Assembly: GCA_016932785.1 (NCBI GenBank)
Contig: JAFGCJ010000002.1
Location: forward strand, 401,777-465,776
Reading direction: 5' to 3'
From: Candidatus Dojkabacteria bacterium
GTDB lineage: Bacteria > Patescibacteriota > Dojkabacteria > SC72 > JAFGCJ01
DNA length: 64,000 nt
Made by a program: the position numbers and the translations under genes. The notes below the pieces were generated by a model. That model was given only the letters and a program-made list of their open reading frames with translations. It searched no databases and was not told where the DNA came from. This document shows, piece by piece, positions 45,696 to 64,000 of this stretch; within the stretch, counting starts at the first letter, position 1, and every line of letters begins with the position of its first letter.

Positions 45696-45731
45696 ATATC
45701 TATGAAAACAGAATTCGGAAAAGATAGCAAA

Positions 45732-46520: not shown

Positions 46521-46544
46521 ATCTAATACAACAATTATCTAAAT

Positions 46545-47117
46545 CTACTGTGCATACCAATCGCCAGGATCGATATTTTCAACATTTTGACCGGAACTAA
46601 CCGTAACAACAATCTTCGAGTGCGATGGACAACTAGCCTCCAAACCACACGTTACAAATTCAGTATAGTAAGCCTTGTATGTATCCCCGGGAACCTGTGC
46701 ATAAACATAGTACGAACCATCTGGTACATCGATATAGTACCCATATCCAAATTGCGCTTGAGCATCAAGAAATATGTCTGTGGTGCAAGTCTCACCTCCT
46801 CCATTATTTGGCTCGGCACAGATTTTCATACCATCAGGGATTGCTTCACTAGGATAGCTCACCGAACCAGATATTCTTCCATTCTGAGGTACTGAAGTCT
46901 GATCATCGTCATCTGTTTGAGAGTCAGAATCTGTGTCCAAGTTCGTATCTTCATCAGAATCGTCCACCGTAGACTCAACGGAATCCCCACCATCATCGGA
47001 ATCTTCGGTCTCCTTCCCAAAAAGAAGAATACCTATGGTAACAGCAGATCCACATATACATAGCAGTAGAACAACTGCCAAAATAACAATTACTACTGTC
47101 TGTCCTTTCCCTTTCAT
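46545..47117 (-). CDS. Hypothetical secreted protein with an acidic linker and a Cys-containing beta-sandwich-like domain
   Basis: TM/signal VVIVILAVVLLLCICGSAV, a D/S/T-rich linker and GRISGSVSYP (carboxypeptidase-regulatory-like start). Confidence 0.45.
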   Translation of the reverse strand: MKGKGQTVVIVILAVVLLLCICGSAVTIGILLFGKETEDSDDGGDSVESTVDDSDEDTNLDTDSDSQTDDDDQTSVPQNGRISGSVSYPSEAIPDGMKICAEPNNGGGETCTTDIFLDAQAQFGYGYYIDVPDGSYYVYAQVPGDTYKAYYTEFVTCGLEASCPSHSKIVVTVSSGQNVENIDPGDWYAQ

Positions 47118-47263
47118 TTATATTTCTAATTAAATTATATCGTCAATATTAATAATAACTTAGCAAATGCAAGTAAGCAAATTTTTACTTTCCAGAGCCG
47201 AAGTCAGAAAGACAGAAACAAAAAGATGTATAATACACCAAACCAAAATCATTATTTCTGTAA

Positions 47264-48247: not shown

Positions 48248-48248
48248 A

Positions 48249-48728
48249 TCAGGAGACTCTAAGGTCGTACTTCTTTACACGATCCTCTCCTAAGACCACC
48301 TTAACCTCTGATTTAACAAACTTCATTGCTGATTCTAGATGCCCTCTTAAAGTATATCCAAGTATACGGTCTTCCTCCTCTTTCTTCTTCTTAAGCGCAA
48401 GTAGCATGTTCACAACCTCGATGGCATCTGAAAATTTTCCTGACCCAAGCTTTTCTTCAGACAAACTATCGGCTGCTGTTGCTATATTTTTAGAAACTCT
48501 TACTGTTTTACCAAGTTTCTTCAAAATACTAGACATTTTATTTTTTGAAATTGGATACCGAAGGCCCAGGCTTTCAGCATTATCAGATGGGATAGATACA
48601 ACAAGAGGATCATCAAAAAACTCGATCTTCAGATATTCCCTTTTGTCATCCTGGTCAGCCTCGAATTTGTCGACAATCTTTCCAACTCCATGTATAGGAT
48701 AGACAACAGTCTCGCGTTTCTTAAACAT
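48249..48728 (-). CDS. carD: CarD/CdnL family RNA polymerase-binding regulator
   Basis: MFKKRETVVYPIHGVGKIVD (Tudor-like RID) and a helical C-terminal domain. Confidence 0.8.
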   Translation of the reverse strand: MFKKRETVVYPIHGVGKIVDKFEADQDDKREYLKIEFFDDPLVVSIPSDNAESLGLRYPISKNKMSSILKKLGKTVRVSKNIATAADSLSEEKLGSGKFSDAIEVVNMLLALKKKKEEEDRILGYTLRGHLESAMKFVKSEVKVVLGEDRVKKYDLRVS

Positions 48729-48808
48729 AAGCAAAACACTATGATAAAGATAGTACCTACAATTATACCATAAAAACGATATTTTTTAAACCTCCACGCA
48801 GGCTGAAA

Positions 48809-50575
48809 CTACTTTACAGTGACACTTTTGGCAAGATTTCGAGGCTTGTCCGGATCATAGCCCAATTCCAGCGCCAAGAAATAAGAAACCAGCTGAAACG
48901 GTATTACATTCGATATACAACTTGCAACACCAACATCAGGAGTTGCAATAAACTCATCGAAGAGCTCATTTTCTACCTGCCCCACACCTATAAGCCATGC
49001 CCCTCTTGCCTTGACCTCTGCTGCTGCAGAGATAATATTTTCTTTTTCTTCATCCTTGCCAATCAAAACGAAAACCGGAGTCCCCTTTTCGATTAAAGCT
49101 ATTACACCATGCTTGAGTTCGCCTCCCGCAAATCCCTCAGCATGAAGGTACGATATCTCCTTTATCTTCAGAGCAGACTCCAAAGTAATATAATAATTTT
49201 GACCTCGGCCAAGAATAAATGCATGGTCAGATTTTTTTAACTTTCTCGAAAGATCGCGAATTCTCTCAAAAAGCTTATCGGAAAAATAGGACTGAAGCAT
49301 GTCAGATAGACAATAAATAGATTTTTTTGCCTCATCATATTTTCCAGCAATGGCGCAAGACACCAAAAGTGACCAGGATAGCTTTGCCGAAAAAGCCTTA
49401 GTGGAGCAAACACATATCTCTGGTCCTGATCTCACAAAAAACGGCATATCTGAAATTCTCGTCAGGGTAGAACCAAGCATATTTACAATACTCGCAACCT
49501 TTGCTCCCCTTGAGATCGCAAATTCAACCGCCTCAACAGTATCAGCCGTTTCACCACTCTGGCTATAAGCAATAATCAAATCATTCGGTGAGAATAAATC
49601 CCTATAGCTATCTACCTCATAAGATTTAAGCTCTACAGCCTTGACTCCAGCTATTTTACGTAAAAAATAGGCTGCCTGACCTGCCTCATAGCTGGCAGTA
49701 CCGGCACCAATAGTATAGACCGTAGATGATTTTTTCACGGTACCTATTAGCGGTTCCAATTCCTTCATTGAGTATTGAACCGCACTTCTTACAGTGTCTT
49801 TTTGTTCAACTATCTCCTTTAGCATAAAATGGTCATATCCACTCTTATCAACATCAACATCGAGATTCTCAAGTTCTTCAATAGTAAAATCAATTTTCTT
49901 CCCCGATTCTGCATCAAACACTGAAATCTCACCATCCTTGTATTCCACAATTTCTCCATCATTAATAAACACTACCCTACTTGTTTTATCTGCAAAAGAA
50001 AGTGTATCAGAAGCGAAAAAGTACTCACCACTACCCACCCCCACAACAAGCGGTGATCCATTTCTAACAGCAATAACATGATCGATCTTACTCGACAAAA
50101 CAACTATAGTATTTCTGCCTTCCAAATCAAGAAATGCTAACCTTACAGCTTCTCTAAGATCTGAGACTGACTTCAGTTTATCCTCAACAAGCCTCACAAT
50201 GACTTCTGTATCTGTTTCCGAAATAAATTCAAAATCCTCATTAATAAGGTTTTTCTTCAAATCCTGGTAGTTTTCTACAATACCGTTTTGAGCAAGAACA
50301 AAGCTCTTATCCGTTGAAAAATGAGGATGAGCATTCACCTCCGTAACTCCGCCATGAGTAGCCCACCTCGTATGACCAACGCCAATATGTGATTCTGGCC
50401 ACTCCCCGACATCAAGATCACCTATCGCTCCGACCTTCTTCGTTACTTCAATCTCTCCCTCTTTCACAACAGCAATACCCCAAGAGTCATAGCCTCGATA
50501 CTCAAGACGTTTCAAACCATTAACGATCTTACCTGCGGCACCGGATTTACCGACATAACCAAAAACCCCACACAT
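48809..50575 (-). CDS. glmS: Glutamine--fructose-6-phosphate aminotransferase
   Basis: MCGVFGYVG (Ntn Cys), GVGHTRWATHG, two SIS domains and the C-terminal PRNLAKSVTVK. Confidence 0.95.
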   Translation of the reverse strand: MCGVFGYVGKSGAAGKIVNGLKRLEYRGYDSWGIAVVKEGEIEVTKKVGAIGDLDVGEWPESHIGVGHTRWATHGGVTEVNAHPHFSTDKSFVLAQNGIVENYQDLKKNLINEDFEFISETDTEVIVRLVEDKLKSVSDLREAVRLAFLDLEGRNTIVVLSSKIDHVIAVRNGSPLVVGVGSGEYFFASDTLSFADKTSRVVFINDGEIVEYKDGEISVFDAESGKKIDFTIEELENLDVDVDKSGYDHFMLKEIVEQKDTVRSAVQYSMKELEPLIGTVKKSSTVYTIGAGTASYEAGQAAYFLRKIAGVKAVELKSYEVDSYRDLFSPNDLIIAYSQSGETADTVEAVEFAISRGAKVASIVNMLGSTLTRISDMPFFVRSGPEICVCSTKAFSAKLSWSLLVSCAIAGKYDEAKKSIYCLSDMLQSYFSDKLFERIRDLSRKLKKSDHAFILGRGQNYYITLESALKIKEISYLHAEGFAGGELKHGVIALIEKGTPVFVLIGKDEEKENIISAAAEVKARGAWLIGVGQVENELFDEFIATPDVGVASCISNVIPFQLVSYFLALELGYDPDKPRNLAKSVTVK

Positions 50576-50702
50576 ACTTAAACAACTAAATTTAAAAACA
50601 CTACGAAAAAAGTAAACGTTATTCTCTCACTTTTCTCACATTTTATAAATTTCAAAGAAGATCTGGTAAAATACTCAAGTCAAATCACTTCAATCTAGTA
50701 AC

Positions 50703-51566
50703 ATGACCGACAAATATACAGCAACATGGGTATCTCATTCTTCAATTAGCGACTTTCTCCAATGCCCGCGCGCGTATTACCTTAAGAATGTTTACAAGAA
50801 CCCCGAAACAGGAAACAAGATTCAAATTGCCTCACCTCCGCTGTCTCGGGGATCGGCCGTACATGAGGTAATAGAGTCACTCTCAAACCTTCCGGTTAAG
50901 AGACGATTTGAGACACCTCTGACAGAGAAATTCGACAAAATTTGGAAAAAGTACAGTGGAAAGATTGGCGGTTTCTCGAACAAGGAAACCGAAGCAAAAT
51001 ATAAGAGGAGCGGTGAAGAAATGCTTCGGAGGGTAACACAAAACCCAGGGCCTCTGCTGAAACTTGCTGTAAAAATCAAAATGGACCTTCCACATTACTG
51101 GCTTTCAGAAGAAGACGATATAATCTTGTGCGGAAAAATCGACTGGCTGGAATATGACGAAAACAATGACAGCGTAAGAATAATCGACTTCAAAACAAGC
51201 AAGCATGAGAACTCCGGTTCACTTCAACTGCCCATTTACAGTCTTCTCGCAAGCAACTGCCAAAGTCATACAGTTCAATCTGCAGCATATTGGTATATCG
51301 CAAGAAACGACAAACCAAAAAATATCAAGCTCCCAGATATAGATAAAACTCAAAAGAAGATTCTCTCTATAGCAAAAAAAATAAGACTTGCAAAACAGCT
51401 TGAAAGCTTCAGTTGTCCAAAAGACTCTGGATGCAAATCCTGCAGACCTTATGAAGCAGTACTTCGGGGAGAGGCAGAACATGTTGGTACCGACAGCATC
51501 GGAAGAGATATTTTCATTCTCGAAGGCAAAACAGAAGATCTTGAAAAAGAAAGCGTAATACTATAA
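50703..51566 (+). CDS. PD-(D/E)XK nuclease, Cas4/AddB-like with a four-Cys cluster
   Basis: N-terminal CPRAYYL, GKIDWLEY...IIDFKTSK (D...D/ExK), C-terminal CPKDSGCKSC. Confidence 0.7.
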   Translation: MTDKYTATWVSHSSISDFLQCPRAYYLKNVYKNPETGNKIQIASPPLSRGSAVHEVIESLSNLPVKRRFETPLTEKFDKIWKKYSGKIGGFSNKETEAKYKRSGEEMLRRVTQNPGPLLKLAVKIKMDLPHYWLSEEDDIILCGKIDWLEYDENNDSVRIIDFKTSKHENSGSLQLPIYSLLASNCQSHTVQSAAYWYIARNDKPKNIKLPDIDKTQKKILSIAKKIRLAKQLESFSCPKDSGCKSCRPYEAVLRGEAEHVGTDSIGRDIFILEGKTEDLEKESVIL

Positions 51567-51577
51567 GCTTGTATCGG

Positions 51578-51892
51578 ATGAAGAAAACTCAAAAACTTTT
51601 TAAAAATTTTACACACTTGTTCTATGCCTCGGGCATTATGTATGCGTTATATTTCTGGGCTACTACACCTAAAAGCAAAGACATGTTCCAACGAAGACTG
51701 TGGGCCTACGAATGCTGGCTTATTTTTACTCTCTATGGAATATTACTCTGGCTTTTCTATATAACAAATGAAAACGAAGCAAGGAAGTCTGAATCCAAGA
51801 TTATCAGATTTCTTAGGAAAAGACGTATCATACAAAGATTATTTCCCTTCATAGTAGTCCTGACAATATACACAGTCAAAGTAACTACCTGA
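51578..51892 (+). CDS. Hypothetical small membrane protein
   Basis: ATG at 51578. Three hydrophobic helices. Abuts the next ORF (TGATG). Confidence 0.4.
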   Translation: MKKTQKLFKNFTHLFYASGIMYALYFWATTPKSKDMFQRRLWAYECWLIFTLYGILLWLFYITNENEARKSESKIIRFLRKRRIIQRLFPFIVVLTIYTVKVTT

Positions 51893-52368
51893 TGAGAATT
51901 TTTAAAAGTATAATTATTAATACTCCCGCAAAGAATCTTGTACTGCTATTTTTCCAGCTAGAAAAAACTCCGGGACAATACTCAATGCCTTCTCACAAAG
52001 GTTTTACAGTTATCGAAGGCAAGCTTGATAAACCAGGATCCATAATCGAAACACAAGAAAAATTTCTCTTTTTCTTTGTGAAGGCAGAATTTATCATAAG
52101 GGACATCGACGAAACCGGACTCTTCACACTATATCTCCAAAAACCTTTAGGTTTTCTAGATGTATTAGTGAAATTCAGATCAAAGAGAATCGACACACAG
52201 CAGACACTTTTATCCATGGATATCTACCAGCCCCACAACACGAAAACACTTAAAAGAATCTTCTTCAATATCGTATTCACCCTTATTTCACCACTTATAA
52301 GAAACCAGATAGGAAAAGAGCTCATTCTTATCAAAAATCTAGCAGAATCACAGGCCAGACCCAGTTAA
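51892..52368 (+). CDS. Hypothetical protein, possibly SRPBCC/START-like
   Basis: 158 aa. The N-terminus MRIFKSIIINTPAKNLVLLF resembles the start of SRPBCC-fold proteins. Weak evidence. Confidence 0.35.
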   Translation: MRIFKSIIINTPAKNLVLLFFQLEKTPGQYSMPSHKGFTVIEGKLDKPGSIIETQEKFLFFFVKAEFIIRDIDETGLFTLYLQKPLGFLDVLVKFRSKRIDTQQTLLSMDIYQPHNTKTLKRIFFNIVFTLISPLIRNQIGKELILIKNLAESQARPS

Positions 52369-53337
52369 CTATATCATTCCCTCACCTTTAAACCACTCAT
52401 ACTGATCCTTAATAGACTCCTTCACATCTCTTGGAGAATATCCCAACTCATTAGTAGCCTTCTCGTGACTGATATTAGAATTACTCAATAAAGTCTCAAG
52501 AGAGTACGGAGTAAACTCTGGATTCTTCTTGAAAAAAGCTAAAACCCCAGCCACAAAACGGGCTATCTTGTAAGGGATAATCTTCGCCGGAGCCTTAACA
52601 CCAGAAAATTCCTCCATATATTTATAGTACTGTTTCATCGTCATCCTTTCCCCCGAAAGAATGTAGGTCTCTCCTTTACCACCCTTCTCCATTGCAGCGA
52701 TCATACCAGCAACAACGTCTCTCACGTCCACATAGTCATATGCCCCCTCCACCATAGCTGTCTGCTGTTCATTCACATAACTGATCATACTTTTTCCAAA
52801 ATACGAAGGGCGATAATCATAAGGACCAATTACTCCTGTCGGACACACTATCGTCGCGTTAAGGCCCTCTTTCACTGCTCTAAGAACAGCCATACTAGCC
52901 CTTGCCTTCGAGCGGTCATACGCACCTCTCGTACTATCCGGATTGAAAGAACAGCATTCGGTAATTACCTTCCCGCGAGGCAGCTCTTTGATCGCGTGAA
53001 TCGAACTCGTATATAAAAGCTTCCTCACATTCTTTTCTACACAGGCCTTAATTATATTCTTAGTCCCACCAATATTTATCTCGTAAACTTTCTTCTCGTT
53101 TCCGGAGGAAATCCATATAAGAGACGCAAGATGATAGACATAATCTACTCCATCCACAGCCTCCATAACTGAAGGGAAATCACGAACATCTCCTACTGAA
53201 GTTTCGTACTGAAGCCCCTTAAGGGGTGTTAGATCAGAATCCTTTCTCGTAAATATGCGAACCTTATCATTTCTGGAAATGAGTTCTCTAACAAGGACAT
53301 TTCCTATTCTGCCTGTAGCTCCTGTAACAAGAATCAT
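52369..53337 (-). CDS. NAD-dependent epimerase/dehydratase (dihydroflavonol reductase-like extended SDR)
   Basis: MILVTGATGRIGNVLVREL, YDRSKARAS (YxxxK). Confidence 0.85.
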   Translation of the reverse strand: MILVTGATGRIGNVLVRELISRNDKVRIFTRKDSDLTPLKGLQYETSVGDVRDFPSVMEAVDGVDYVYHLASLIWISSGNEKKVYEINIGGTKNIIKACVEKNVRKLLYTSSIHAIKELPRGKVITECCSFNPDSTRGAYDRSKARASMAVLRAVKEGLNATIVCPTGVIGPYDYRPSYFGKSMISYVNEQQTAMVEGAYDYVDVRDVVAGMIAAMEKGGKGETYILSGERMTMKQYYKYMEEFSGVKAPAKIIPYKIARFVAGVLAFFKKNPEFTPYSLETLLSNSNISHEKATNELGYSPRDVKESIKDQYEWFKGEGMI

Positions 53338-53430
53338 TGTGTATTAGTTAAAGGTTATCTTAGTGCATATACCTACATAATACATGAAAATATCAGAGGG
53401 ATCCCCTATGGTATCGGTAGAACCTTAAAA

Positions 53431-53505
53431 TCGGGGTGACAGGACTCGAACCTGCGACCCCACGCACCCCATGCGTGTGCTCTAAGCCAACTGAGCTACA
53501 CCCCG
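53431..53505 (-). tRNA. tRNA-Pro (anticodon GGG), CCA not encoded
   Basis: Minus strand reads CGGGGTG-TA-GCTC-AGTTGGCTTA-GAGC-A-CACGC-ATGGGGT-GCGTG-GGGTC-GCAGG-TTCGAGT-CCTGT-CACCCCG-A. G37 sits 3' of the anticodon, as expected for Pro. Confidence 0.9.
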
Positions 53506-53567
53506 AATATTTCAAGAGGATTTTACCACGAACACGTTCCAATCCAAACCTTCAACATTTCGGCCCG

Positions 53568-54599
53568 CTATCTCTTGATCTCAATAACTATCTGATTTGG
53601 CGAAGTAGTTCTGTAAATTCTATATTCTGTGCCCTTTGCCAGAATAAATTCATACACATTATCACCGCCAGATTTGCTACCCTCCACCCGCTCCACAGGT
53701 GAAGAAAGATCTGCCTCAAAAACATTATCCGATCCTAGAACAGAATCCTTTTGTACATTTCCAAACTTTACAACAATTTTCTTGTCAGCAGAAATATATT
53801 CTGCAGTTGTTGGAGGTGTAGGATTTCCAGATGCAGAAGATGTACTCCAGGTAAACTTCAATACACTACCCTCAACTCCCCATGAATACGAACCAATCCG
53901 AACATCACCGGTAGTGTTGGTACCAGTCAGTGACTGTACACCGCTAGAAAATTCTTCAGGATCCTCAACGGCTGACTCATTTTCATCCGAAGTGCCCGGA
54001 TATTTAACATCAAGAATCACAGTCAAACCTTCTCCCTGATGAAGATAGAAAGACGTATCACTATCTATTCCGATATTATAAACCTCCTCAGCTTCATTTG
54101 GAGTAACGGCATGGTAGAGCTTAACAACACCATCCTTATTTATTGTTCTCTGACCTTGATAAGGGATTCCACTACTATCACTTGTAACTCTATCCAATCT
54201 AATTTTTATATAACCGCCAGATGAAACTAATGTGGCCTCAACTTCTGCAAAATCTTCTTCGTCTGACTCAAGAACAAATTCAAACCTGTGATATCCGTCC
54301 ATCGCAGTGTCATTTATTTCCATAAGATCATACTCTGCACTATCTTTTCCGGAGGAATTTCCAACAGTCTGAGTCTGCTCGGAAAATTTAGACATATCCG
54401 TTTCCCCTGTACTTGAATCTTCAGTTTCCTCTTCTTCTGTATCTTCCTCTTCCTGAGATTCTTCATCATTCCCTTGATCTACTGATTCTTCCTGATCCTC
54501 CTTATCAATTTTCTCATTATTCCGGTAGTTCACGTATAGAAGCACTCCCCCAGTAATAACTATTGCAAAAAGAACAACTGCTATTACAATTTTTTTCAT
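53568..54599 (-). CDS. Hypothetical secreted protein with an acidic linker and two beta-sandwich-like repeats
   Basis: N-terminal TM helix and an E/D-rich linker. Two modules end in similar strands (GYIKIRLDRV and NQIVIEIKR), reminiscent of AMIN/GerMN-type domains. Confidence 0.45.
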   Translation of the reverse strand: MKKIVIAVVLFAIVITGGVLLYVNYRNNEKIDKEDQEESVDQGNDEESQEEEDTEEEETEDSSTGETDMSKFSEQTQTVGNSSGKDSAEYDLMEINDTAMDGYHRFEFVLESDEEDFAEVEATLVSSGGYIKIRLDRVTSDSSGIPYQGQRTINKDGVVKLYHAVTPNEAEEVYNIGIDSDTSFYLHQGEGLTVILDVKYPGTSDENESAVEDPEEFSSGVQSLTGTNTTGDVRIGSYSWGVEGSVLKFTWSTSSASGNPTPPTTAEYISADKKIVVKFGNVQKDSVLGSDNVFEADLSSPVERVEGSKSGGDNVYEFILAKGTEYRIYRTTSPNQIVIEIKR

Positions 54600-54634
54600 A
54601 TTAAAAAAACTAAATTTACCTATTTTAACTATAT

Positions 54635-55930
54635 CTAAATTTTAACTACTAATCCACCAATAGAAGCGCTCTTTACTTTTCCTTTAACAATTTTCCCAAT
54701 TTTTCCAGAACCGCTAATTACTTCAACATCCCTCAAGTCCTTTGTTTTTCCTGCATTACTGCTAAGCACAAGAACTTCAACTTCTTTACCTACTATTCTT
54801 TCATTTTGCTTTTTCATTATTTTTACCTGGATGCTCTCCAGTCTTTTCTTCCTACGTTTTTTTTCAGCTAAAGGAACATCATCCTTCATCAAGGCTGCTC
54901 CTGTACCCTTTCTGGGCGAAAATTCAGATATATAAATCATTCCATACCAAATCTTTTCAATGAAGGCCACGGTCTCTTCAAAATCTTCCTCAGTCTCCCC
55001 GGGAAAACCGACAATTACATCAGTACTCAGCCTTATATTAGGTAACTTCTCACTTAAATACTCGATCTTTGCCAAATAATCCAGCCAGGTATAACCACGA
55101 TTCATTTTTTCCAGAACCTTGTTTGAAGCTGACTGAATAGGAAGATTCAGATACGGACATATTTTGTCATATTTTGCCATGACATCAGCTAGCTCATCAT
55201 TAAAATCTTTCGGATGAGAGGTAAGAAATGTCAGCCAAAATTCACCACGAATTCTAGCGATCTTGGCTAGTAAATAAGAAAACCCTACGTTCTTGCCTTT
55301 TACCGTACCAGTCCAACTGTTTACATTCTGACCGAGAAGAGTAATCAATTTACATCCATTCTTAACAAGTTCTCTGACTTCTCTAACTATAGAGTTTAGT
55401 GATCTATGTTCTTCTTTTCCACGAGTATATGGGACAATACAATACGTACAGAAATTGTTACATCCTTTTGATATTGGTACAAAGGCTGCAATGGAAGATG
55501 CGTAGGATTGTTCTGCATTATCGTGGCTAAAAGAACGTTTTTTCCCGGTAGCGATTTTATATATGGACGATAGATCCCCGATGTTCACAAAATAATCTAT
55601 CCATTTAAACCTCCGCCGCATGCTCTTAAGATATTTTGGGTCATAAGCAGTTTTATCTTTACAACCCCGATCTATTCTCTGGGACATACAGCCTGTCATT
55701 ACGACCTTAAGATTTTTGTTTTTTGACTTAAGTTTCTTTATCTTTCTTCCCAGACCCGCCACTTTGTCCTCGGCCCTCTGTCTCACCGAACAGGTGTTCA
55801 GAATAATCAGATCCGAATCCTCCATTTTTTCTGACTTAATCCAACCGGCTCCTAACAAAACCGCCTCTATCTTCTCAGAATCGGCATAATTCAACTGGCA
55901 TCCCCAAGTTTTTATGTGAAATTTAGACAT
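54635..55930 (-). CDS. miaB: tRNA methylthiotransferase MiaB (radical SAM, UPF0004 plus TRAM)
   Basis: IKTWGCQLNYADSE, ILNTCSVR, CNNFCTYCIVPYTRG and a C-terminal TRAM-like GKEVEVLV. Confidence 0.8.
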   Translation of the reverse strand: MSKFHIKTWGCQLNYADSEKIEAVLLGAGWIKSEKMEDSDLIILNTCSVRQRAEDKVAGLGRKIKKLKSKNKNLKVVMTGCMSQRIDRGCKDKTAYDPKYLKSMRRRFKWIDYFVNIGDLSSIYKIATGKKRSFSHDNAEQSYASSIAAFVPISKGCNNFCTYCIVPYTRGKEEHRSLNSIVREVRELVKNGCKLITLLGQNVNSWTGTVKGKNVGFSYLLAKIARIRGEFWLTFLTSHPKDFNDELADVMAKYDKICPYLNLPIQSASNKVLEKMNRGYTWLDYLAKIEYLSEKLPNIRLSTDVIVGFPGETEEDFEETVAFIEKIWYGMIYISEFSPRKGTGAALMKDDVPLAEKKRRKKRLESIQVKIMKKQNERIVGKEVEVLVLSSNAGKTKDLRDVEVISGSGKIGKIVKGKVKSASIGGLVVKI

Positions 55931-55950
55931 ATTTGTGGTACATTATTATT

Positions 55951-56415
55951 ATGGATACAGCAATTATAGCAATAATAATAGCCGTTATACCAACGGCGCT
56001 TTCAGTCTATCTTCTATACGTAACAAACGAACAAAAGAAAAGAATAGACAACCTAACAACAGGCATCAGCGAAGGAAATCTCGAAAATATAGTACGAACA
56101 TACATAGAAAATCTCCGCAAATGTGCCTCCGACATCGACCTAATGAATCAAGAGTTCGAAAAAATACGCCAAGAGACACGCGAGTTCTTTAGAAAAATTG
56201 GGATCGTACGTTTCCAGGCGTTTAAAGATACCGGAGGAGATCAAAGTTTCGCACTCACCCTACTCGACCAGGAAAACAACGGGTTTGTAATAAGTAGTCT
56301 CTACGGAAGAGGGTTCTCCAAAATATACTTGAAACCTATTGAAAAGGGTAAGTCAGAAAAATATACACTTACAGATGAGGAACGAGAATCACTTGAAATT
56401 GCACTGAACACATGA
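55951..56415 (+). CDS. DUF4446-like membrane-anchored protein
   Basis: ATG at 55951. TM helix, then GIVRFQAFKDTGGDQSFALTLLDQENNGFVISSLYGR. Confidence 0.6.
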   Translation: MDTAIIAIIIAVIPTALSVYLLYVTNEQKKRIDNLTTGISEGNLENIVRTYIENLRKCASDIDLMNQEFEKIRQETREFFRKIGIVRFQAFKDTGGDQSFALTLLDQENNGFVISSLYGRGFSKIYLKPIEKGKSEKYTLTDEERESLEIALNT

Positions 56416-57707
56416 GAGAGCTCAACTTAAACTCCGGGGTAATAAACCAAAAAAAGAGAGAAAAGACATCAAAGACTCTAGAAACAACTGCTGTTCCAAA
56501 AGTAGACGAAAATCCAACAAAAAAGACTCCTCTCACCGAGAGAATCAAAAAACTACTCAAGAAATACCAAAACCTGCCTCCCAAGAAGAAAATCCTTGTG
56601 ACCGGACTCATATGTTCAATAATACTCATCATTGGCGGGATAAGTGCCTATTTTATAATATTCAGCAAAGAACCGATCAAAGATTTTACTATTCCCGAAA
56701 GAATCTCTGCAAAAAAATCTACATCACAATACTTTAGTAATATAATTCCTCCTTTCCCCGAGCCGCCAAGAGACAAAGAAAACCCGATCAATGGAGAGCT
56801 TTACACATCAAAACAATATTCCGCTATGGAGGACCGCTATCCTATTGCTGTAATGATAGAAAATCATGTCGACGCACGTCCCCAATCAGGATACAACTCT
56901 GCCGATATAGTTTATGAGGCACTTGCAGAAGGTGGAATTACTCGTACGATGGCAATATTTTGGGGTAAGGAATGTGAAGAAATCGGCCCCATAAGAAGCG
57001 CCCGTCAGTACTTCATCGAATGGCTTATGCCTTATGATCCTCTGTATATGTATATCGGTTATGCAACAAGCTCAGATCCGAGGGTAAACGCGGGGCAAAG
57101 CATTTACGAATATGGAATAAAAGGAATGGATGTATACGGAACATTCTGGAGGGATACTACACGATACTCCCCTCACAATGCTTACTCATCAACCGAACTT
57201 CTATATCAAAGAGCTAAAGACATTGGTTATACAGGAAAACCCGGTGAAATAAAGCCTCTCAAATTCAAGATGGATGCCGCTCCCGACAAAAGAGGGTCCT
57301 TTGAAAAAGTCACGATTACATTCTTTGAACGACTTTATAACGGCGGTCTCTATGATGTTACCTGGGTATACGATTCACAACGTAACGTCTATCTCCGCTA
57401 CAACGGCGACGACAAGTATATTGATCAAAATTCCGAACAACAGGTTTTTGCTAAAAATGTGATCATTCAAAGAATGGATACAATCTCGACTTTTGATTCC
57501 AAAGCTCATATAATAATAACCACCATTGATGAAGGCGATGCAATAATTCTACGAGATGGCCAAACTATAAATGCTACCTGGAAGAAAAAAGATCTAGAAT
57601 CAAGAACGAGATATTACGATAGTGATGGTAAAGAAATAGAACTAAACCGAGGCATCATATGGATAGAATCTGTCCCCATTGAACAAGGTAGTGTAACAAT
57701 AGATTAA
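56412..57707 (+). CDS. DUF3048 domain protein (YerB-like)
   Basis: YPIAVMIENHVDARPQSGYNSADIVYEALAEGGITRTMAIF. TM anchor. ATGA overlap with the upstream gene. Confidence 0.7.
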   Translation: MRELNLNSGVINQKKREKTSKTLETTAVPKVDENPTKKTPLTERIKKLLKKYQNLPPKKKILVTGLICSIILIIGGISAYFIIFSKEPIKDFTIPERISAKKSTSQYFSNIIPPFPEPPRDKENPINGELYTSKQYSAMEDRYPIAVMIENHVDARPQSGYNSADIVYEALAEGGITRTMAIFWGKECEEIGPIRSARQYFIEWLMPYDPLYMYIGYATSSDPRVNAGQSIYEYGIKGMDVYGTFWRDTTRYSPHNAYSSTELLYQRAKDIGYTGKPGEIKPLKFKMDAAPDKRGSFEKVTITFFERLYNGGLYDVTWVYDSQRNVYLRYNGDDKYIDQNSEQQVFAKNVIIQRMDTISTFDSKAHIIITTIDEGDAIILRDGQTINATWKKKDLESRTRYYDSDGKEIELNRGIIWIESVPIEQGSVTID

Positions 57708-57722
57708 AATTGATTAATAAAA

Positions 57723-58298
57723 ATGATCGATCAATTATTTGTATCAAAAGTTAGGGTGAAACTTCTTAAGTTTTTCTTTTTAGATACATCTAAAGAACTT
57801 CACATCCGTGGAATCACTAGAAAGATTGACGAGGAAATTAATGCTGTAAGAAGAGAACTCAAGAATCTTGAATCTGCGTCTATCCTCAGAAAGGAACGAC
57901 GAGGAAATCGTCTTTACTACAAAATTAATAAGGACTGTCCCATATATTACGAGTTGCTCGGCCTTGTAAACAAGGAATTTGGCCTCGGTAGAACGATTCT
58001 TGATAACAAAGACCACTTAGGTGAAGTTAGGTATGCAGTTTTAACTACAGCATATCTGGAAAATCATCACCCTTCTCCATACGATGTCGATATTTTGATT
58101 ATCGGTAATCTCGAAATGAAAAACATATCATCTGCCATAAAGAGCGCCGAATCATCCATAGGACGAGAAATAAGGTATACTGTTATGACCGAAGAGGAAT
58201 TCGACTTCAGAAAAAAGAAGAGAGATTCTTTTATATCCAATATACTAAATCGTCAAAAGATTATACTAATTGGAGACGAAAACGAATTAATGTCATGA
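57723..58298 (+). CDS. Winged-helix (ArsR-like) DNA-binding protein with a C-terminal alpha/beta domain
   Basis: SKVRVKLLKFFFLD...HIRGITRKIDEEINAVRRELKNLESASILRKERRGNRLYYKIN. Confidence 0.55.
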   Translation: MIDQLFVSKVRVKLLKFFFLDTSKELHIRGITRKIDEEINAVRRELKNLESASILRKERRGNRLYYKINKDCPIYYELLGLVNKEFGLGRTILDNKDHLGEVRYAVLTTAYLENHHPSPYDVDILIIGNLEMKNISSAIKSAESSIGREIRYTVMTEEEFDFRKKKRDSFISNILNRQKIILIGDENELMS

Positions 58299-59500
58299 AA
58301 ATACGACTGCCTAGAATAAAACTCCCTAGACTGCAGATTCAACAAGACGTGATTGTCAAAACCGCTTTTATATTAGTCTATTCCGTTGCATGTTTATTCA
58401 TTCTTATACCACAAATAGACTATCAATCCTGGTATCCGGAGAAGCTAGGTACGTATGATTACAAACTTGGTATTGAGTATAGAGAGCATAAAAGAATCTC
58501 TATCGATCTCAAGGAAAACAACATCGATGACAAACAAGTAAATGCTCTCGTAGAGGCAATATACCAGAGAGCCGAAGAAGCAAATCTAAATGATTTCTTT
58601 ATAAGAAAGAACTCGGACAAACTAGAAATTCATATACCCCACTGGTACAGCGACTCATTCGCAACAAGTCTCATTTCTCCAGGAAAAATTGAAATCTTGA
58701 AACCAAAAGACCTCGAGTCCGAAGACAGTCAACCATCTGTTGACCAGATTTTCAGTCGCGACAACTACGAAAGCGTTGGAATTAAAACGTCCAAATTTGA
58801 CAAGGCTACAATAACAAATCAGAGAGCAGGTTACTCATACATAAGTATCAAAAGTGATAAAGACCAAGAAAGAAGACTTAACAAACTTGGAGAAGAATCC
58901 CAGACATCAAATATCGGGCTCGTAATTGACGACTCGGTAAATCTGGCATGGGTCCTTCCTTCCGATGACGAGACAACAAAATACCCTACTCTCATAATTC
59001 TGATGGAATCACCGGAAGTAGAGATTTTTGTCTCGCAACTCATAAACGATCCACTAGAAATGCCAATAGTCACAAGCAACATAGATACTGTCAAGGGAAC
59101 GCAGCGTGAAAGTACGCTATATGCAGTAATCGGCTCTATAGTTGGACTGACAGCAGCAGGTCTACTATTCCAAGCTCTCTACAGGAAGTACTCAGTAAAT
59201 CACATTGCAGCAACAGGCCTTATGATAATAGGCATTATGACATTACTGAAGATCACAGAACCAACGCTTTCTTTGGCAGCAATGATAGGAACACTTTCAA
59301 TATTTGTCTTAATAATGTTCCTTAAATCGGGAACTTATGCGATAGCTTTTCCTATTATTATAGTCATTGGTCTAGCATCATGGTTATCACCAAATCCTAC
59401 ACTGAAGAGCATTGCCAATATCTACATTTCTACGGGAATATTTGCAACGTCTTATTATATTGTTTGTTACCTACTCGGAATATATGAAGAAAAAAGTTAG
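58295..59500 (+). CDS. Hypothetical polytopic membrane protein with a large N-terminal extracytoplasmic domain
   Basis: 401 aa. ATGA overlap with the upstream regulator. One N-terminal and about four C-terminal TM helices. Confidence 0.45.
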   Translation: MKIRLPRIKLPRLQIQQDVIVKTAFILVYSVACLFILIPQIDYQSWYPEKLGTYDYKLGIEYREHKRISIDLKENNIDDKQVNALVEAIYQRAEEANLNDFFIRKNSDKLEIHIPHWYSDSFATSLISPGKIEILKPKDLESEDSQPSVDQIFSRDNYESVGIKTSKFDKATITNQRAGYSYISIKSDKDQERRLNKLGEESQTSNIGLVIDDSVNLAWVLPSDDETTKYPTLIILMESPEVEIFVSQLINDPLEMPIVTSNIDTVKGTQRESTLYAVIGSIVGLTAAGLLFQALYRKYSVNHIAATGLMIIGIMTLLKITEPTLSLAAMIGTLSIFVLIMFLKSGTYAIAFPIIIVIGLASWLSPNPTLKSIANIYISTGIFATSYYIVCYLLGIYEEKS

Positions 59501-60104
59501 CATATCAAATTCTAATATTATGCTTTATATAGGCATATTTCTGCTTGTACTTCCCATATTGGGCACAGTTTTTAATCCCAAAGTGCCAGAGATCATATAT
59601 AAAATCGACCTCTACTCTGGTTTGGCTGTTAGAACAACAATAATATCTATTCTTGTAATAATCATCTGCTACAGTATCATTAGAGCTGTTTACCTAAACG
59701 GTAAATCCACCAATTCCATCCGCATCTCAATAACAAGCTTTGTTCTAAACCTGTTATCCATCATCTTGTTCTTAATAGGATCAACTATCATCTACAAAAT
59801 AGTCGGGATAGATACAATATCTCAACTTTCCGGAACGGTAATTTCAATATCATTATTCTCGATTCTCATCACAATGATCTACGAGGATATCGAGATTTAT
59901 CAAAGAAAAGATAATCAATTACCAAATATTCAAATAGGATCCATCCTGGCAATGCTAGCAACGACGCTCATAACAGGACTCCTACTGGCATTTTCAAGAA
60001 CACCGGTTTCTGATCAGGTTATGGCTTCATCTCTTCCCTTATGGAATCTTATATACCTGCTTTTAGTACGTAAAAGCATCCTTCGATATCTCATAAAAGT
60101 CTAA
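59484..60104 (+). CDS. Hypothetical polytopic membrane protein
   Basis: ATG at 59484 (MKKKVSISNSNIMLYIGIFLLVLPIL). About six TM helices. The listed upstream extension overlaps the previous gene. Confidence 0.4.
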   Translation: MKKKVSISNSNIMLYIGIFLLVLPILGTVFNPKVPEIIYKIDLYSGLAVRTTIISILVIIICYSIIRAVYLNGKSTNSIRISITSFVLNLLSIILFLIGSTIIYKIVGIDTISQLSGTVISISLFSILITMIYEDIEIYQRKDNQLPNIQIGSILAMLATTLITGLLLAFSRTPVSDQVMASSLPLWNLIYLLLVRKSILRYLIKV

Positions 60105-60106
60105 AC

Positions 60107-61021
60107 ATGTCGAAAATCATAGCCATAGGTGGACTTACTTCCTCAGGAAAGAGTTCCCTTGGAATAAAAATTGCTAAAAAATTTGACGGAGAAATTATCA
60201 ACGCAGATTCAAGACAAATATACCGGTATCTTGATATAGGTACCGGGAAGGAGCCAGTATCTGAGCATAAAAAAGACGGTACGGTCATTATAAATGGTAT
60301 TATTCATCATCTTATAGATATCCTGGATCCAGACGAAGACTACAATCTCGCAACTTATAAGAAAAAGACCGAAAGTAAAATATCAGAAATTGCTGACAGA
60401 GATAAACTACCTATTCTTGTCGGAGGAACAGGGCTTTATCTGGATGCTGTCGTATATAACTATGCGCTTGAAGGTAACGGCCCAGACTTGCATCAAAGAG
60501 AGTACCTTCAATCCCTCGAAATCGACCAGCTGCAAAAGCTTTGCCACAAAAATGATCCTAGGTCATTTTCAGAAATGAATCAAAGCGATAAAAAAAATCC
60601 ACACAGACTTATACGATGCATCGAAAGGTCACAATATAAAGAAAGATCAAATACAAACAGAGAAAAAAGTCCATACACGAGCCTATACCTTTGTAGAAAT
60701 ACTTCGGCACTACAACTTGAAAACCAGATAAACGACCGTGTAGAAGAGATGTTCAAAACCGGTCTCTTAGAAGAAAACAAGAAACTTAGAGAACAAGGAT
60801 TTTCTACCGAAATGTCTTCGATGAAGACCATAGGATACAGAGAATTCGATGAATACTTCAGCGGAAATATAACCCTCGAAGAAACCAAATCTCTCATCAA
60901 AACCCACACAAGACAATATGCCAAGCGTCAGATGACATGGTTTAAGCGAAATCCAGACATAACCTGGTTCAAAACTCCAAAAAAAGCACTTGAGCTTGTT
61001 AGTAAGTTTCTTTCTAGCTAG
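60107..61021 (+). CDS. miaA: tRNA dimethylallyltransferase
   Basis: IIAIGGLTSSGKSSLGIKIAKKF, INADSRQIYRYLDIGTGK, ILVGGTGLY. Confidence 0.9.
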   Translation: MSKIIAIGGLTSSGKSSLGIKIAKKFDGEIINADSRQIYRYLDIGTGKEPVSEHKKDGTVIINGIIHHLIDILDPDEDYNLATYKKKTESKISEIADRDKLPILVGGTGLYLDAVVYNYALEGNGPDLHQREYLQSLEIDQLQKLCHKNDPRSFSEMNQSDKKNPHRLIRCIERSQYKERSNTNREKSPYTSLYLCRNTSALQLENQINDRVEEMFKTGLLEENKKLREQGFSTEMSSMKTIGYREFDEYFSGNITLEETKSLIKTHTRQYAKRQMTWFKRNPDITWFKTPKKALELVSKFLSS

Positions 61022-62285
61022 CTTCTATTTTTTCTTTTCCCACGTAATCACGAAGCACCTCAGGAACAGTAAGACTTCCATCCTCATTTTGATATGTCTC
61101 AATAAGTGCTGCCATCAATCTTGACGTCGCAAGCCCAGAAGCGTTGAGGGTATGCGTATATTCCATTTTCCCTTCAGCATCTTTATATCTCACATTTCCT
61201 CTTCTACTCTGAAAGTCATGGGCATTAGAAATTGAGCTAACCTCTGTCCATTTATCCAGATATGGCAACCAAACTTCCACATCATATGTCCTAGCCATAC
61301 CAAACGACATATCCTCTGCAGCAAGCTTTGATACACGATGAGTTAGCCCAAGACCCTGTACAAGTTTTTCTGCACGTGCTACAAGATCATTGAACTCACC
61401 CGCCGACTTTTCCTTGGTCGTATAATGAAACATCTCGACTTTATCAAACTGGTGCATTCTGATAAGACCTCTTTCATCCTTACCATATGAACCAGCTTCA
61501 CGCCTGTAACAAGGAGTATACGCAAAGTACTTAAGCGGAAGATCTGCTTTATCAAGGACCTCATCCCGATGGAGATTGCACAAAGCTGTCTCTGCTGTAG
61601 GAAGAAGACACTGTGAATCCTGGGTCCAGTAAACATCATCCTTGAACTTAGGAAGTTGCCCTGCTACATATGCCGACTCTTCATTAAGAAGATGCGGTGG
61701 AATTATACAAACATAGCCATCTTTACGATGAAATTTCATGAAGTAGTCGATAAGAGCCCACTCAAGCACAGCCCCATCACCCACATACATTGGCATTTGG
61801 GCTCCACTTATTTTTGAGGCACGCTTGAAATCTAAAATTCCCAATTTTTCTCCTACTTCGGTATGATCCTTCACTTTAAATCCAAAATCGCGTTTCTCAC
61901 CCCACTCCCGTATAACTTCGTTGTTCTCTTTTCCTCCAGCAACAATATCCTCTTCAGGAACATTTGGAAGACCTGCAACCATCTCGTCAAGTTTATCTTT
62001 TGTCTCATTTAACTGAACTTCAAACTTCTTAACCTCATCAGAGAGAACCTTCAGATCCTTAACAGATTTTTTGAATCCGTCACTCGATTTATCTTTTATC
62101 GAAGCCATTTTCTCATTGTACTTTTTCTGCTCTGCTCTCTTCGCCTCATATGCCGAAAGTACCTTCTTGTACTTCTCATACATGTTCAATATTTCATCAA
62201 GGTTTAGATCCTTTTCTGTAACCCTCTTCAATAAACCATCTCTGACTTTCTGTATGTCATCAACAATTCTTTTTATATCGATCAT
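61014..62285 (-). CDS. serS: Seryl-tRNA synthetase
   Basis: N-terminal coiled coil MIDIKRIVDD. Motif 2 YTPCYRREAGSYGKDERGLIRMHQFDKVE. Motif 3 HTLNASGLATSRLMAALIE. Confidence 0.95.
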   Translation of the reverse strand: MIDIKRIVDDIQKVRDGLLKRVTEKDLNLDEILNMYEKYKKVLSAYEAKRAEQKKYNEKMASIKDKSSDGFKKSVKDLKVLSDEVKKFEVQLNETKDKLDEMVAGLPNVPEEDIVAGGKENNEVIREWGEKRDFGFKVKDHTEVGEKLGILDFKRASKISGAQMPMYVGDGAVLEWALIDYFMKFHRKDGYVCIIPPHLLNEESAYVAGQLPKFKDDVYWTQDSQCLLPTAETALCNLHRDEVLDKADLPLKYFAYTPCYRREAGSYGKDERGLIRMHQFDKVEMFHYTTKEKSAGEFNDLVARAEKLVQGLGLTHRVSKLAAEDMSFGMARTYDVEVWLPYLDKWTEVSSISNAHDFQSRRGNVRYKDAEGKMEYTHTLNASGLATSRLMAALIETYQNEDGSLTVPEVLRDYVGKEKIEAS

Positions 62286-62364
62286 CTTTATTTATCGATC
62301 AATTTAACTATTCACCCTATCCGGTAGATGCCGCTTCACGAGTCTTTTTAGTACATCTAGAACC

Positions 62365-62392
62365 AAAAAGAGCTCCCCGCTGGGAGCTCTTT
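62365..62392 (-). terminator. Intrinsic terminator hairpin inside the serS leader (attenuator 3:4 helix)
   Basis: Minus strand reads AAAGAGCTCCC-agcg-GGGAGCTCTTT followed by TT: an 11-bp stem with an 8-bp GC-rich core and a run of five T. No upstream minus-strand gene exists for it to terminate. Confidence 0.6.
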
Positions 62393-62411
62393 GATTTCCG
62401 GGTATAGAAAT

Positions 62412-62492
62412 CTAGCATAGACCCCAGCAGGCCTCAGAAGAGGATGAGGAGAAACTAGATACTAGATTTTGCAAAAATATTTTGTACTTCAT
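62412..62492 (-). CDS. Candidate Ser-rich leader peptide of serS (26 aa)
   Basis: Minus strand reads ATG AAG TAC AAA ATA TTT TTG CAA AAT CTA GTA TCT AGT TTC TCC TCA TCC TCT TCT GAG GCC TGC TGG GGT CTA TGC TAG, which translates to MKYKIFLQNLVSSFSSSSSEACWGLC. In-frame ATGs also occur at 62498 and 62504. It is located in the serS 5' region with the terminator about 20 nt downstream. Confidence 0.5.
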   Translation of the reverse strand: MKYKIFLQNLVSSFSSSSSEACWGLC

Positions 62493-62637
62493 TGACATTA
62501 ACATTGTAGCACTATTTTAATATTAGATCCAAATACTACTATTCTCATAACGTTTATCCCATTTGCGTTGCAGCACAATGCGGTACTGTCCTTTTTGTTT
62601 TAAATTAATATGAAATTAATTTTTTATCTCATATCTA

Positions 62638-63987
62638 ATGTTTAAGAAACAGCTGACTACAGTTATCGGTCAAACGTTGGCTATAGCTGCAGTTCTCTCC
62701 GGAGTTTTCATCTGGGGATCTATACTAATAACCGCCACGCAAGCTTCACCAGATGAGCAGAAATCACTGGATCCCACAACAAACAATCTCGCAAAAGAAC
62801 GTGGAATCAGCATAAAAGAGGCCAGAAAGAGAATCAAATGGCAGGATAGTGCCAGTGATCTCAACGACACTCTAACTGAAGAGCTTTCTGATGAAGATTT
62901 CGGCGGGGTATGGATCGGCGAAGACGACAGAGTCAAAGTTGGCGTTCTAAATGGTTCCCAAAATGGCAATAATAAAGACAAAATTAAAAACGAAGCAAGA
63001 AGTTTAGGACTAGAGAATGCTGTCGACTACGTACCAGTCGCAAACTCCTTCGAAGAACTTGAAATAGCAAGGGAAAGAATAAGTAATGAGGCAGAAATTG
63101 TAAATGAAGAAGCAGACTGGCCAATATATGCAGGAATTACTACCGATACCAATCAGGTTCTTGTACATATACCAGAAAAAAATAACGAGCTAACCAAAGA
63201 ACAAAGAGTCTTTCTTAACGAGATTAAGAAAGAGTATGGGCGAATGGTGAAGACAACCACCTATAAGGAATTGCCTGTTGATACAAACTGCTACTTCCCT
63301 TACTGTGACAGCCCTCTTCGCGGCGGTGTCGGTATAAGCGGAAGTAATAATTACAGTGCGCCATATTGTACTGCAGGATTTATGGTCAGAGGAAATTCTG
63401 GTACGAGGTATGTTCTTACTGCTGGCCACTGCTCTTCCGGAGGAAATGGTTGGGCTACATATACTAGTAGTGGAAGTCTAAAAAAGATCGGACCAATTCA
63501 CCGAAGCGTCTACAATCAGAGAATTGACGCCATGATTATCAAAATTCGTGAAGACACCTACAACTGGAATGTTCAAGGATCTGTGTTTATAACTAATGGC
63601 CTGGGAATAGACGGATTCTGGGGACCAAGCTATAACGAAAATTATGATATTAACGGTACAAGCACCAGTGGAAACCTTGTAGGCAGCAGAATATGCAAGA
63701 CTGGAGCCGCTACAGGTTCAAGTTGTGGTGCTGTTCATGAGGTCGATATAGAGGTGGCATTTGCTGATCAGGTGTCAACTAATCTCGTTCGAGCCGGATA
63801 CTGTAATAACTATGGAGATAGCGGTGGTCCTGTTTTCAGAAACGGAAAGGCTTTAGGCATCAATAAGGGAGGAAATCTCAGCTATGGATATAAGATTTCA
63901 ATCAATGGCTACTGCAATGATGAACAGTACTATACAGGAATCCGTCCGATAATCAGAGCAATGGACAATACCATCGACATCTTCTAG
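62638..63987 (+). CDS. Secreted S1-family serine protease, alpha-lytic protease/streptogrisin-like with an N-terminal pro-region
   Basis: Signal/TM segment. Pro-region DFGGVWIGEDDRVKVGV. Catalytic triad contexts YVLTAGHC (His), RIDAMIIKI (Asp) and YGDSGGPVF (Ser). Multiple Cys pairs. Confidence 0.8.
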   Translation: MFKKQLTTVIGQTLAIAAVLSGVFIWGSILITATQASPDEQKSLDPTTNNLAKERGISIKEARKRIKWQDSASDLNDTLTEELSDEDFGGVWIGEDDRVKVGVLNGSQNGNNKDKIKNEARSLGLENAVDYVPVANSFEELEIARERISNEAEIVNEEADWPIYAGITTDTNQVLVHIPEKNNELTKEQRVFLNEIKKEYGRMVKTTTYKELPVDTNCYFPYCDSPLRGGVGISGSNNYSAPYCTAGFMVRGNSGTRYVLTAGHCSSGGNGWATYTSSGSLKKIGPIHRSVYNQRIDAMIIKIREDTYNWNVQGSVFITNGLGIDGFWGPSYNENYDINGTSTSGNLVGSRICKTGAATGSSCGAVHEVDIEVAFADQVSTNLVRAGYCNNYGDSGGPVFRNGKALGINKGGNLSYGYKISINGYCNDEQYYTGIRPIIRAMDNTIDIF

Positions 63988-64000
63988 ACAACACCCACAC

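Follow-up and report, generated by a model that had tools for sequence, protein, structure and literature searches.

A serine-codon leader upstream of serS in a Dojkabacteria bacterium as a candidate ribosome-mediated transcription attenuator

Why should a seryl-tRNA synthetase gene be preceded by a strong transcription terminator? The question is raised by the serS locus of Candidatus Dojkabacteria bacterium (contig JAFGCJ010000002.1), which lies in the 64-kb stretch of DNA analysed here and called the window below. Candidatus Dojkabacteria were formerly named WS6 and are a part of the Candidate Phyla Radiation (CPR). The gap between serS and its divergent neighbour (62638..63987, plus strand) is 352 bp long and contains the whole leader. 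Since this neighbour is divergent, there is no upstream gene in need of a terminator.

The first-pass annotation of this DNA proposed that serS is controlled by a Ser-codon attenuator through the position of the ribosome on a short leader open reading frame (ORF). Our analysis speaks for the same answer. The leader is likely to be a classical ribosome-mediated leader-peptide transcription attenuator tuning serS to the charging of tRNA-Ser. This reading is supported by the leaders of related serS genes, by covariation of the antiterminator helix and by Thr-coded copies of the same element in front of thrS.

Leader ORF, terminator and competing helix

The elements of the locus are listed below in coordinates of the window, with the leader and serS read on the minus strand.

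62503..62511, minus strand: extended -10 TGCTACAAT, candidate leader promoter, from the sequence
62532..62527, minus strand: weak -35-like TTGGAT, 18 nt upstream of the extended -10
62412..62492, minus strand: leader mini-ORF MKYKIFLQNLVSSFSSSSSEACWGLC, stop codon TAG at 62414..62412; homologous mini-ORFs in L082, L090, L086, L091, L093 and L083
62436..62459, minus strand: regulatory codon run TCT AGT TTC TCC TCA TCC TCT TCT, 7 Ser in 8 codons
62462..62469, minus strand: 5' strand of a possible anti-antiterminator P1, AAAUCUAG, with the partner CUAGAUUU at 62415..62408
62408..62415, minus strand: 3' strand of the possible P1, CUAGAUUU, overlapping the leader stop and the 5' half of the apical hairpin
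62419..62431, minus strand: antiterminator 5' strand CCUGCUGGGGUCU, within the last codons of the leader ORF
62393..62412, minus strand: apical hairpin GAUUUCU-AUACCC-GGAAAUC of the antiterminator stem-loop, compatible with both states
62376..62390, minus strand: antiterminator 3' strand AGAGCUCCCAGCGGG, spanning the terminator from its 5' arm through the loop AGCG into the first G residues of the 3' arm
62392..62367 with the U run to 62365, minus strand: intrinsic terminator AAAGAGCUCCC-AGCG-GGGAGCUCUUU (arms also given as AAAGAGCTCCC and GGGAGCTCTTT), from the terminator scan
62306..62314, minus strand: weak candidate serS-proximal promoter TGAATAGTT, suggested by the alignment, with a poor match in the window
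61014..62285, minus strand: serS, seryl-tRNA synthetase (SerRS) of 423 aa (Pfam Seryl_tRNA_N and tRNA-synt_2b), the gene that would be regulated

Every sequence feature named in the first-pass annotation is present at its coordinates on the minus strand. This concerns the mini-ORF 62492..62412 with its further in-frame ATGs at 62498 and 62504, as well as the seven Ser codons out of eight at 62459..62436, which are of four types (TCT, AGT, TCC and TCA). It also concerns the terminator at 62392..62365, whose hairpin was found by an independent scan, and the pairings CTGGGGTCT/AGCTCCCAG, GATTTC/GAAATC and AAATCTAG/CTAGATTT. The first Ser codon is separated from the antiterminator 5' strand by 28 nt. 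Taken alone the Ser run is weak evidence, because the 64 kb, translated in six frames, has about 12 places where 8 codons include 6 Ser or more. It is the comparative data on which the case for more than chance rests. Other mini-ORFs with cognate codons, or an extended -10 followed by a short ORF, were sought in the 64-kb window and nothing comparable was found. ARAGORN gave no tRNA or tmRNA in the leader.

The terminator hairpin has 11 pairs, 6 of them G-C, and no terminator-like site in the last 20 kb of the window (44001..64000) is stronger. The ATG of serS lies 80 nt past it. The 152-nt leader as a whole folds better than its shuffled versions (z = -3.3, with 0 of 200 as good). The competing antiterminator is formed by pairing of CCUGCUGGGG.CU (62431..62419) with AG.CUCCCAGCGGG (62390..62376), and it consumes the 5' arm of the terminator, its loop and three G of its 3' arm. 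The two structures are thus mutually exclusive, with -25.8 kcal/mol for the antiterminator stem-loop versus -18.2 kcal/mol for the terminator. The antiterminator is present in the minimum free energy (MFE) structure of the whole intergenic RNA. The start of serS is neither sequestered nor paired with the leader in any predicted fold.

Folding with ribosome masks was in part in agreement with the switch proposed by the first-pass annotation. When the mask is placed at the stop codon only the terminator forms, as expected if a ribosome at the stop permits termination; the position of the stop itself is kept in 8 of 9 copies. A mask on the Ser run did not yield the antiterminator at equilibrium. 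At full length the terminator together with small hairpins is about 5 kcal/mol better even with this mask, and equilibrium folding with ribosome masks alone did not switch the window leader to the antiterminator. Because the terminator state is the better one at equilibrium, the switch must be kinetic, as it is in known attenuators.

The following sequence of events can be proposed. Transcription would start few nucleotides after the extended -10, so that the RNA would begin at or next to the AUG of a leader ORF of 26–28 codons. When Ser-tRNA(Ser) is plentiful, the ribosome would pass the seven Ser codons, cover 62431..62419 and reach the stop codon at 62414..62412. With the antiterminator blocked, the terminator at 62392..62367 and its U run would form and the transcript would end near 62365. 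When Ser-tRNA(Ser) is scarce, the ribosome would halt at the first Ser codons, 28 nt short of the antiterminator 5' strand. The freed strand would pair with 62390..62376 as soon as the latter is made, the antiterminator would form first and RNA polymerase would continue into serS. The start of transcription, translation of the mini-ORF, termination at the hairpin and the response to serine are what we infer here from the sequence.

Homologous leaders before serS and thrS

Relatives of the leader were collected from the serS neighbourhoods of the closest SerRS proteins and by a scan of metagenomes with a pattern derived from the RNA portion of the leader. The SerRS of the window is identical to a protein annotated as Candidatus Dojkabacteria, and after it the closest SerRS sequences have 60–68% identity. 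The leader is located directly 5' of serS in nine relative loci with SerRS identity of 60–64%, which represent six distinct sequences. The metagenome scan added one new lineage (L089/L090) and one chance match (L088), and a pattern scan of viral contigs gave no match. A profile search of genome contigs with the SerRS alignment was dominated by other phyla and gave two Dojkabacteria-like loci, both without the leader. The contig P0005 begins within serS and contributes no upstream DNA. The leader peptides are as follows.

L082: MDIYLIIQNLSSSSSSSTEACRGLC
L089 and L090: MLMNTYTTVISRISS, then TGA, then in-frame FSSSPACWGIC
L086 and L087: MARHIGFSSSSSRS
L091 and L092: MAYRTVSFSSSLRS
L093: MAYVISLFSSSSRS
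L083, copy before serS: MKRKKQLWKIFCRTYSSSSSKTC

The Ser density is 5–7 in 8 codons in five of the six distinct homologues, and 3 in 8 before the early TGA in L090. The runs are retained with differing mixtures of TCN and AGY codons, which speaks for selection acting on the identity of the codons and not on the nucleotide sequence as such. In all copies the first regulatory codon is located 19–34 nt 5' of the conserved G-rich antiterminator strand, and in 8 of 9 copies the ORF stops at -4 to +17 nt relative to where this strand begins, with L090 as the exception. The C-terminus of the peptide, which overlaps the RNA helix, changes non-conservatively. Between the window and L082 the codons TGC TGG are replaced by TGT CGG, so that Trp becomes Arg while the change is exactly compensatory and keeps the RNA pairing. 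The gene 5' of the leader varies (a sigma factor, thrS, an ABC permease or a DHH protein, and the divergent protease in the window). As this neighbour differs between loci, the element travels with serS and not with the preceding gene.

The terminator AGCUCCC-NNNN-GGGAGCU followed by a U run is found in the window, L082, L090 and the thrS leaders of L083 and L094, and its stem is invariant there. Three of the distinct leaders, called here subgroup B (L086:2324-2444, L091:1812-1932 and L093:1861-1975), encode a peptide of the form M-A-...-SSS-RS. Their ORF ends with TGA 3 nt before CCCGCCCCCGGGG, before the region of the variable peptide C-terminus. The 5' end of this ORF (AUGGCAUA) can pair with UAUGCCGU.

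Covariation is concentrated in the antiterminator. RNAalifold of six leaders gave it as the only consensus helix, with 3 covarying pairs. Pairs were counted on an alignment of nine sequences. Of the antiterminator cells in it 90.6% are paired, compared with 40–64% after the 3' partner has been shifted along the sequence. Four pairs have both of their bases changed, and a covariation score as high as the observed one is reached by 0 of 500 shuffles. On the 3' side covariation extends into the terminator loop (AGCG, GAUA, GGCA or GGC/GGA), which co-varies with CU, UC or CC at 62428..62425 of the 5' strand. In a plain terminator there would be no reason for the loop to covary. The apical hairpin is only partly conserved, 66% of its cells being paired across 7 leaders.

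The first-pass annotation had thus been right in expecting a competing helix; this helix is conserved and covarying, and its extent had been given as too short, as it really comprises 62431..62419 with 62390..62376. The comparison with relatives that it had proposed bore out the mini-ORF, which is conserved, and the antiterminator, which is conserved with compensatory changes, and gave no such changes for the anti-antiterminator.

The most informative of the comparative results concerns thrS. The covariance model R1, built solely from the six Ser leaders, matched L083:726-848 (52.8 bits, E 5e-10) and L094:298-420 (48.8 bits, E 4.5e-9). The mini-ORFs of these copies are MYQKLIKQNLVLSTTMSTL (L083) and MNKQLIKQNLVMSTTTSTL (L094), in which Thr codons replace the Ser run (STTMST and STTTST). 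The gene downstream is threonine-tRNA ligase in both cases (L083:961-2304 and L094:548-1909; NCBIfam E 1e-103 and 2.5e-98). The copies share with the Ser leaders the promoter spacing, the CAAAAUCUAGU block, the antiterminator and the terminator, and here too the ORF stops before the C-terminal region of the peptide. The codon run tracks the specificity of the enzyme and is therefore a signature of ribosome-mediated attenuation, which the rival explanations account for poorly. R1 gave no match in 78 serS loci of other phyla (0.5 Mb) and no second leader copy in the 64-kb window, and neither the window nor the other loci gave a thrS match in tblastn with the threonyl-tRNA synthetase (ThrRS) of L083. 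The best further R1 match in the window (45820..45889, plus strand; 18.8 bits, E 0.05) has no obvious mini-ORF or terminator and is probably due to chance. The two ThrRS proteins are short (447–453 aa) and match only about 150–565 of the 613-position thrS profile, and so they lack the N-terminal TGS/editing part.

The promoter motif is conserved as well. The bases TGnnAnAnT of the extended -10 are invariant in 9 of 9 aligned leaders, and the distance from it to the leader ATG is 6–10 nt in all nine copies (4 or 10 nt in the window, depending on the ATG). This spacing fits an RNA start at or beside the AUG, so the mRNA from which the leader ORF is read is probably leaderless or nearly so, as the first-pass annotation had suggested. 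A scan with the sigma-70 consensus gave no -35/-10 pair in 61900..63000, and the promoter call is therefore based only on the conserved extended -10.

Some observations concern the genes around the element. The divergent neighbour of serS in the window encodes a 449-aa protein that has a hydrophobic stretch at its N-terminus and a serine protease domain of the trypsin type (Pfam Trypsin, 33.7 bits). At its other end serS is convergent with miaA (60107..61021, plus strand; IPP transferase, Pfam 212.8 bits), and the same arrangement is seen in all complete Dojkabacteria-like serS loci from the contig look-ups (L081-L087, L091-L093, L097 and L098). Past miaA, where the locus is long enough, there are two unannotated ORFs of about 200 aa and about 390–440 aa; this pair gave no Pfam match in the window.

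Evidence against attenuation and rival explanations

Several observations weigh against attenuation at this leader, or at least against its simplest form. The element is absent 5' of serS in eight of the Dojkabacteria-like loci sampled (L081, L084, L085, L094, L095, L098, L001 and L002). All eight have short serS upstream regions, and the distribution of the element is patchy. Subgroup B keeps the ORF and the antiterminator, yet these are followed by a short CUCCC-GGN-GGGAG hairpin without a U run; L086 and L091 have an alternative weak hairpin and then CUUUG. The serS copy of L083 (2348-2466), located just after thrS, has the antiterminator homologue ACCUGCUAGG/CCUGGUAGGU followed directly by UUUUAUAUU. 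The 3' arm of its terminator is missing, its stop codon lies inside the antiterminator 5' strand, and the direct repeat UAGGUUUUAU flanks the loop of the antiterminator homologue. Since the U run follows this homologue and the stop is inside its 5' strand, the logic would be inverted in this copy. Perhaps it has decayed, or perhaps it serves as the terminator of thrS as well. The leader ORF of L090 (1654-1782) carries an early in-frame TGA (...SRISS, stop, FSSSPACWGIC, stop). Its sequence is the same as that of L089, from two independent metagenome assemblies, and its RNA helices are intact. The thrS leaders contain two Ser codons besides the Thr codons, which may or may not be linked to the short ThrRS.

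The promoter and the folding raise doubts of the same kind. A downstream motif resembling an extended -10 is located about 20–32 nt before the serS ATG in L082 (2464-2472), L086 (2468-2476), L081 (2463-2471) and L098 (1453-1461). It is good in L082 (TGATATAAT), in L086 and in the relatives L081 and L098 (TGCTATAAT), which are of the type without the leader, and the window matches it poorly. It stands between the attenuator and serS in L082 and L086 and aligns with the promoter of the relatives without the leader. A second, attenuator-independent promoter is plausible in these two loci and possible in the window, so a part of serS transcription may bypass the attenuator. Terminator-like sites are not enriched in 44001..64000 (17 found versus 14.2 +/- 3.7 expected from shuffled sequence). 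The evidence on the anti-antiterminator of the first-pass annotation is divided: the pairing AAAUCUAG/CUAGAUUU exists and appears in the MFE structure of the 152-nt leader, and the block CAAAATCTAGT in its 5' region is kept within the close group (in the window and both thrS leaders, with CAAAATCTATC in L082). It shows no covariation, the 64% of its cells that are paired are not above shuffles, and the ribosome-free nascent RNA is predicted to form the antiterminator rather than P1. Read-through may for this reason be the default when the leader is not translated. The covariation statistics are themselves soft, as there are only nine copies from about six lineages, which are phylogenetically clumped.

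It is conceivable that the leader peptide senses Ser-tRNA but that the ribosome acts through Rho-dependent termination, the stability of the mRNA or translation further downstream; the hairpin with the U run in the window would then be secondary. Subgroup B would fit this, for it retains the ORF and the big stem-loop with no U run after the small hairpin, and its leaders have C-rich unpaired stretches (CCCGCCCCC and UUUCUCUUUC). The lack of enrichment of intrinsic terminators in the window points the same way, as do the mycobacterial leaderless short ORFs with poly-Cys runs, which affect translation and not termination (bioRxiv 10.1101/834739). We regard such an output as unlikely, given the textbook terminator (a G+C-rich stem of 7–11 bp, a 4-nt loop and 4–8 U) in the window, L082, L090 and both thrS leaders, the exact overlap of the covarying helix with this terminator, and a serS start that is 80 nt downstream and unsequestered in the predicted folds. 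A sensor independent of translation (T-box-like or another riboswitch) or a protein-binding leader, with the mini-ORF being incidental, would agree with an RNA stem-loop being the element that is conserved best and that alone covaries. The gene serS is under T-box control in Firmicutes. Here no T-box was found in 60500..64000 at E<=10 with Rfam, and neither a T-box nor any other family at E<=1 in L082, L083, L086, L090 and L094. The spacing of the ATG after the -10, the open frame and the stop near the helix are kept in all nine copies, and the switch from Ser to Thr together with the synthetase involves a run of several codons instead of a single specifier; this makes an RNA or protein sensor highly improbable.

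The remaining two explanations deny any link between the element and the charging of tRNA. The leader may be an independent small gene with its own promoter and terminator, coding for a Ser/Cys-rich peptide, similar to ribosomally synthesized and post-translationally modified peptides (RiPPs), or for a trans-acting small RNA, which merely stands beside serS. In favour of this, a promoter-like motif and a strong terminator belong to the element itself, its peptide has many Ser, Thr and Cys residues, and attenuator RNAs and peptides of Sinorhizobium are reported to act in trans (PMC6614838, PMC7298713). On the other side, the C-terminus is not conserved as a peptide and the Trp to Arg change follows the RNA pairing; there are no modification enzymes nearby, the sole constant neighbour is the aminoacyl-tRNA synthetase (aaRS) gene directly 3' on the same strand, and the codon identity tracks this synthetase. 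An independent gene is thus very unlikely. Still less credible is chance, i.e. a TC-rich stretch read as Ser beside a stray hairpin with no function. The Ser-rich windows are fairly common, as mentioned above, whereas the element is conserved at SerRS identity of 60–64%, R1 recovers the thrS leaders from outside its training set at significant E values, covariation is seen in the antiterminator, and Ser gives way to Thr where the gene is thrS; these comparative data contradict it. The RiPP-precursor and stray-terminator readings were rejected on the same evidence.

Relation to known systems and significance

The attenuator proposed for serS has well-known counterparts. In E. coli pheST a cognate-codon ORF (the pheM leader peptide) is followed by alternative hairpins, and a low level of charged tRNA leads to read-through. 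Among aaRS genes, pheST, trpS and leuS (PMC1262725) and a hisS paralogue (PMC2965389) have known or predicted classical attenuators, and leader-peptide attenuation has been documented mainly in Proteobacteria, Actinobacteria and few Firmicutes (PMC2965389). As in E. coli pheST and in the predicted attenuators of Streptomyces trpS and leuS (PMC1262725), an aaRS gene stands here after a cognate-codon ORF and antiterminator/terminator hairpins. In contrast to them, the amino acids are Ser and Thr, the hosts are Dojkabacteria of the CPR, and the leader ORF is probably at the 5' end of the RNA and without a Shine-Dalgarno sequence. There is also no sequence relationship to Phe_leader. None of the Rfam leader families (Phe_leader, Thr_leader, Trp_leader, His_leader and Leu_leader) reached its gathering threshold, the best being Phe_leader with 26.2 bits versus 55 (E 0.23). 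The likeness to Phe_leader is at the level of architecture and sub-threshold, and the element is not a member of the Rfam leader families by sequence.

The logic of regions 1–4 is that of the trp, his and thr operon attenuators of Proteobacteria (trpL, hisL and thrL): the terminator is the 3:4 pairing, the regulatory codons are upstream of region 2 and the stop is at or within region 2. Unlike these, a synthetase would be controlled here instead of a biosynthetic operon, and the 1:2 pairing is weakly supported. The T-boxes of Firmicutes serS and thrS share with the attenuator proposed here the genes, the tRNA-charging signal and the choice of antiterminator versus terminator as the output. T-boxes bind uncharged tRNA directly through the specifier codon and the T-box bulge, with no need for translation, and no T-box match was obtained here. 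The mycobacterial poly-Cys leaderless short ORFs (Canestrari et al., bioRxiv 10.1101/834739) likewise sense an amino acid through repeated codons of one type, and this design recurs at several loci. They differ from the serS leader, which has a canonical intrinsic terminator and a serS start that is 80 nt away and unpaired with the leader in the predicted folds.

In full-text literature searches, neither a Ser-codon leader, nor control of serS by a leader peptide, nor any attenuator in the CPR came up. Synthetase leader-peptide attenuation is otherwise known or predicted only for pheST, trpS, leuS and the hisS paralogue. The leaders described here would thus represent new pairs of amino acid and gene and a new phylum for classical leader-peptide transcription attenuation, with a leader ORF that is probably leaderless. 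It may be further suggested, as a tentative idea that we would not yet favour, that Dojkabacteria, and perhaps other CPR bacteria, regulate several aaRS genes by means of one re-codable scaffold (a leaderless leader peptide, an antiterminator and a terminator). The specificity of such a scaffold would be changed by swapping the codon run, as seen for Ser/serS and Thr/thrS, and the scaffold would be spread by duplication and re-coding. If true, it would be the translation-based functional counterpart of the T-box regulon.

As far as the literature search shows, neither T-boxes nor attenuators have been described in Dojkabacteria or the CPR. If confirmed, the serS attenuator would be among the first gene-regulatory mechanisms assigned in these uncultivated bacteria with reduced genomes, and it would imply both transcription-translation coupling and leaderless initiation in them. 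It would also provide a model by which annotators may find further copies, and the pair of serS and thrS leaders would be a natural example of an attenuator scaffold re-coded for another amino acid.

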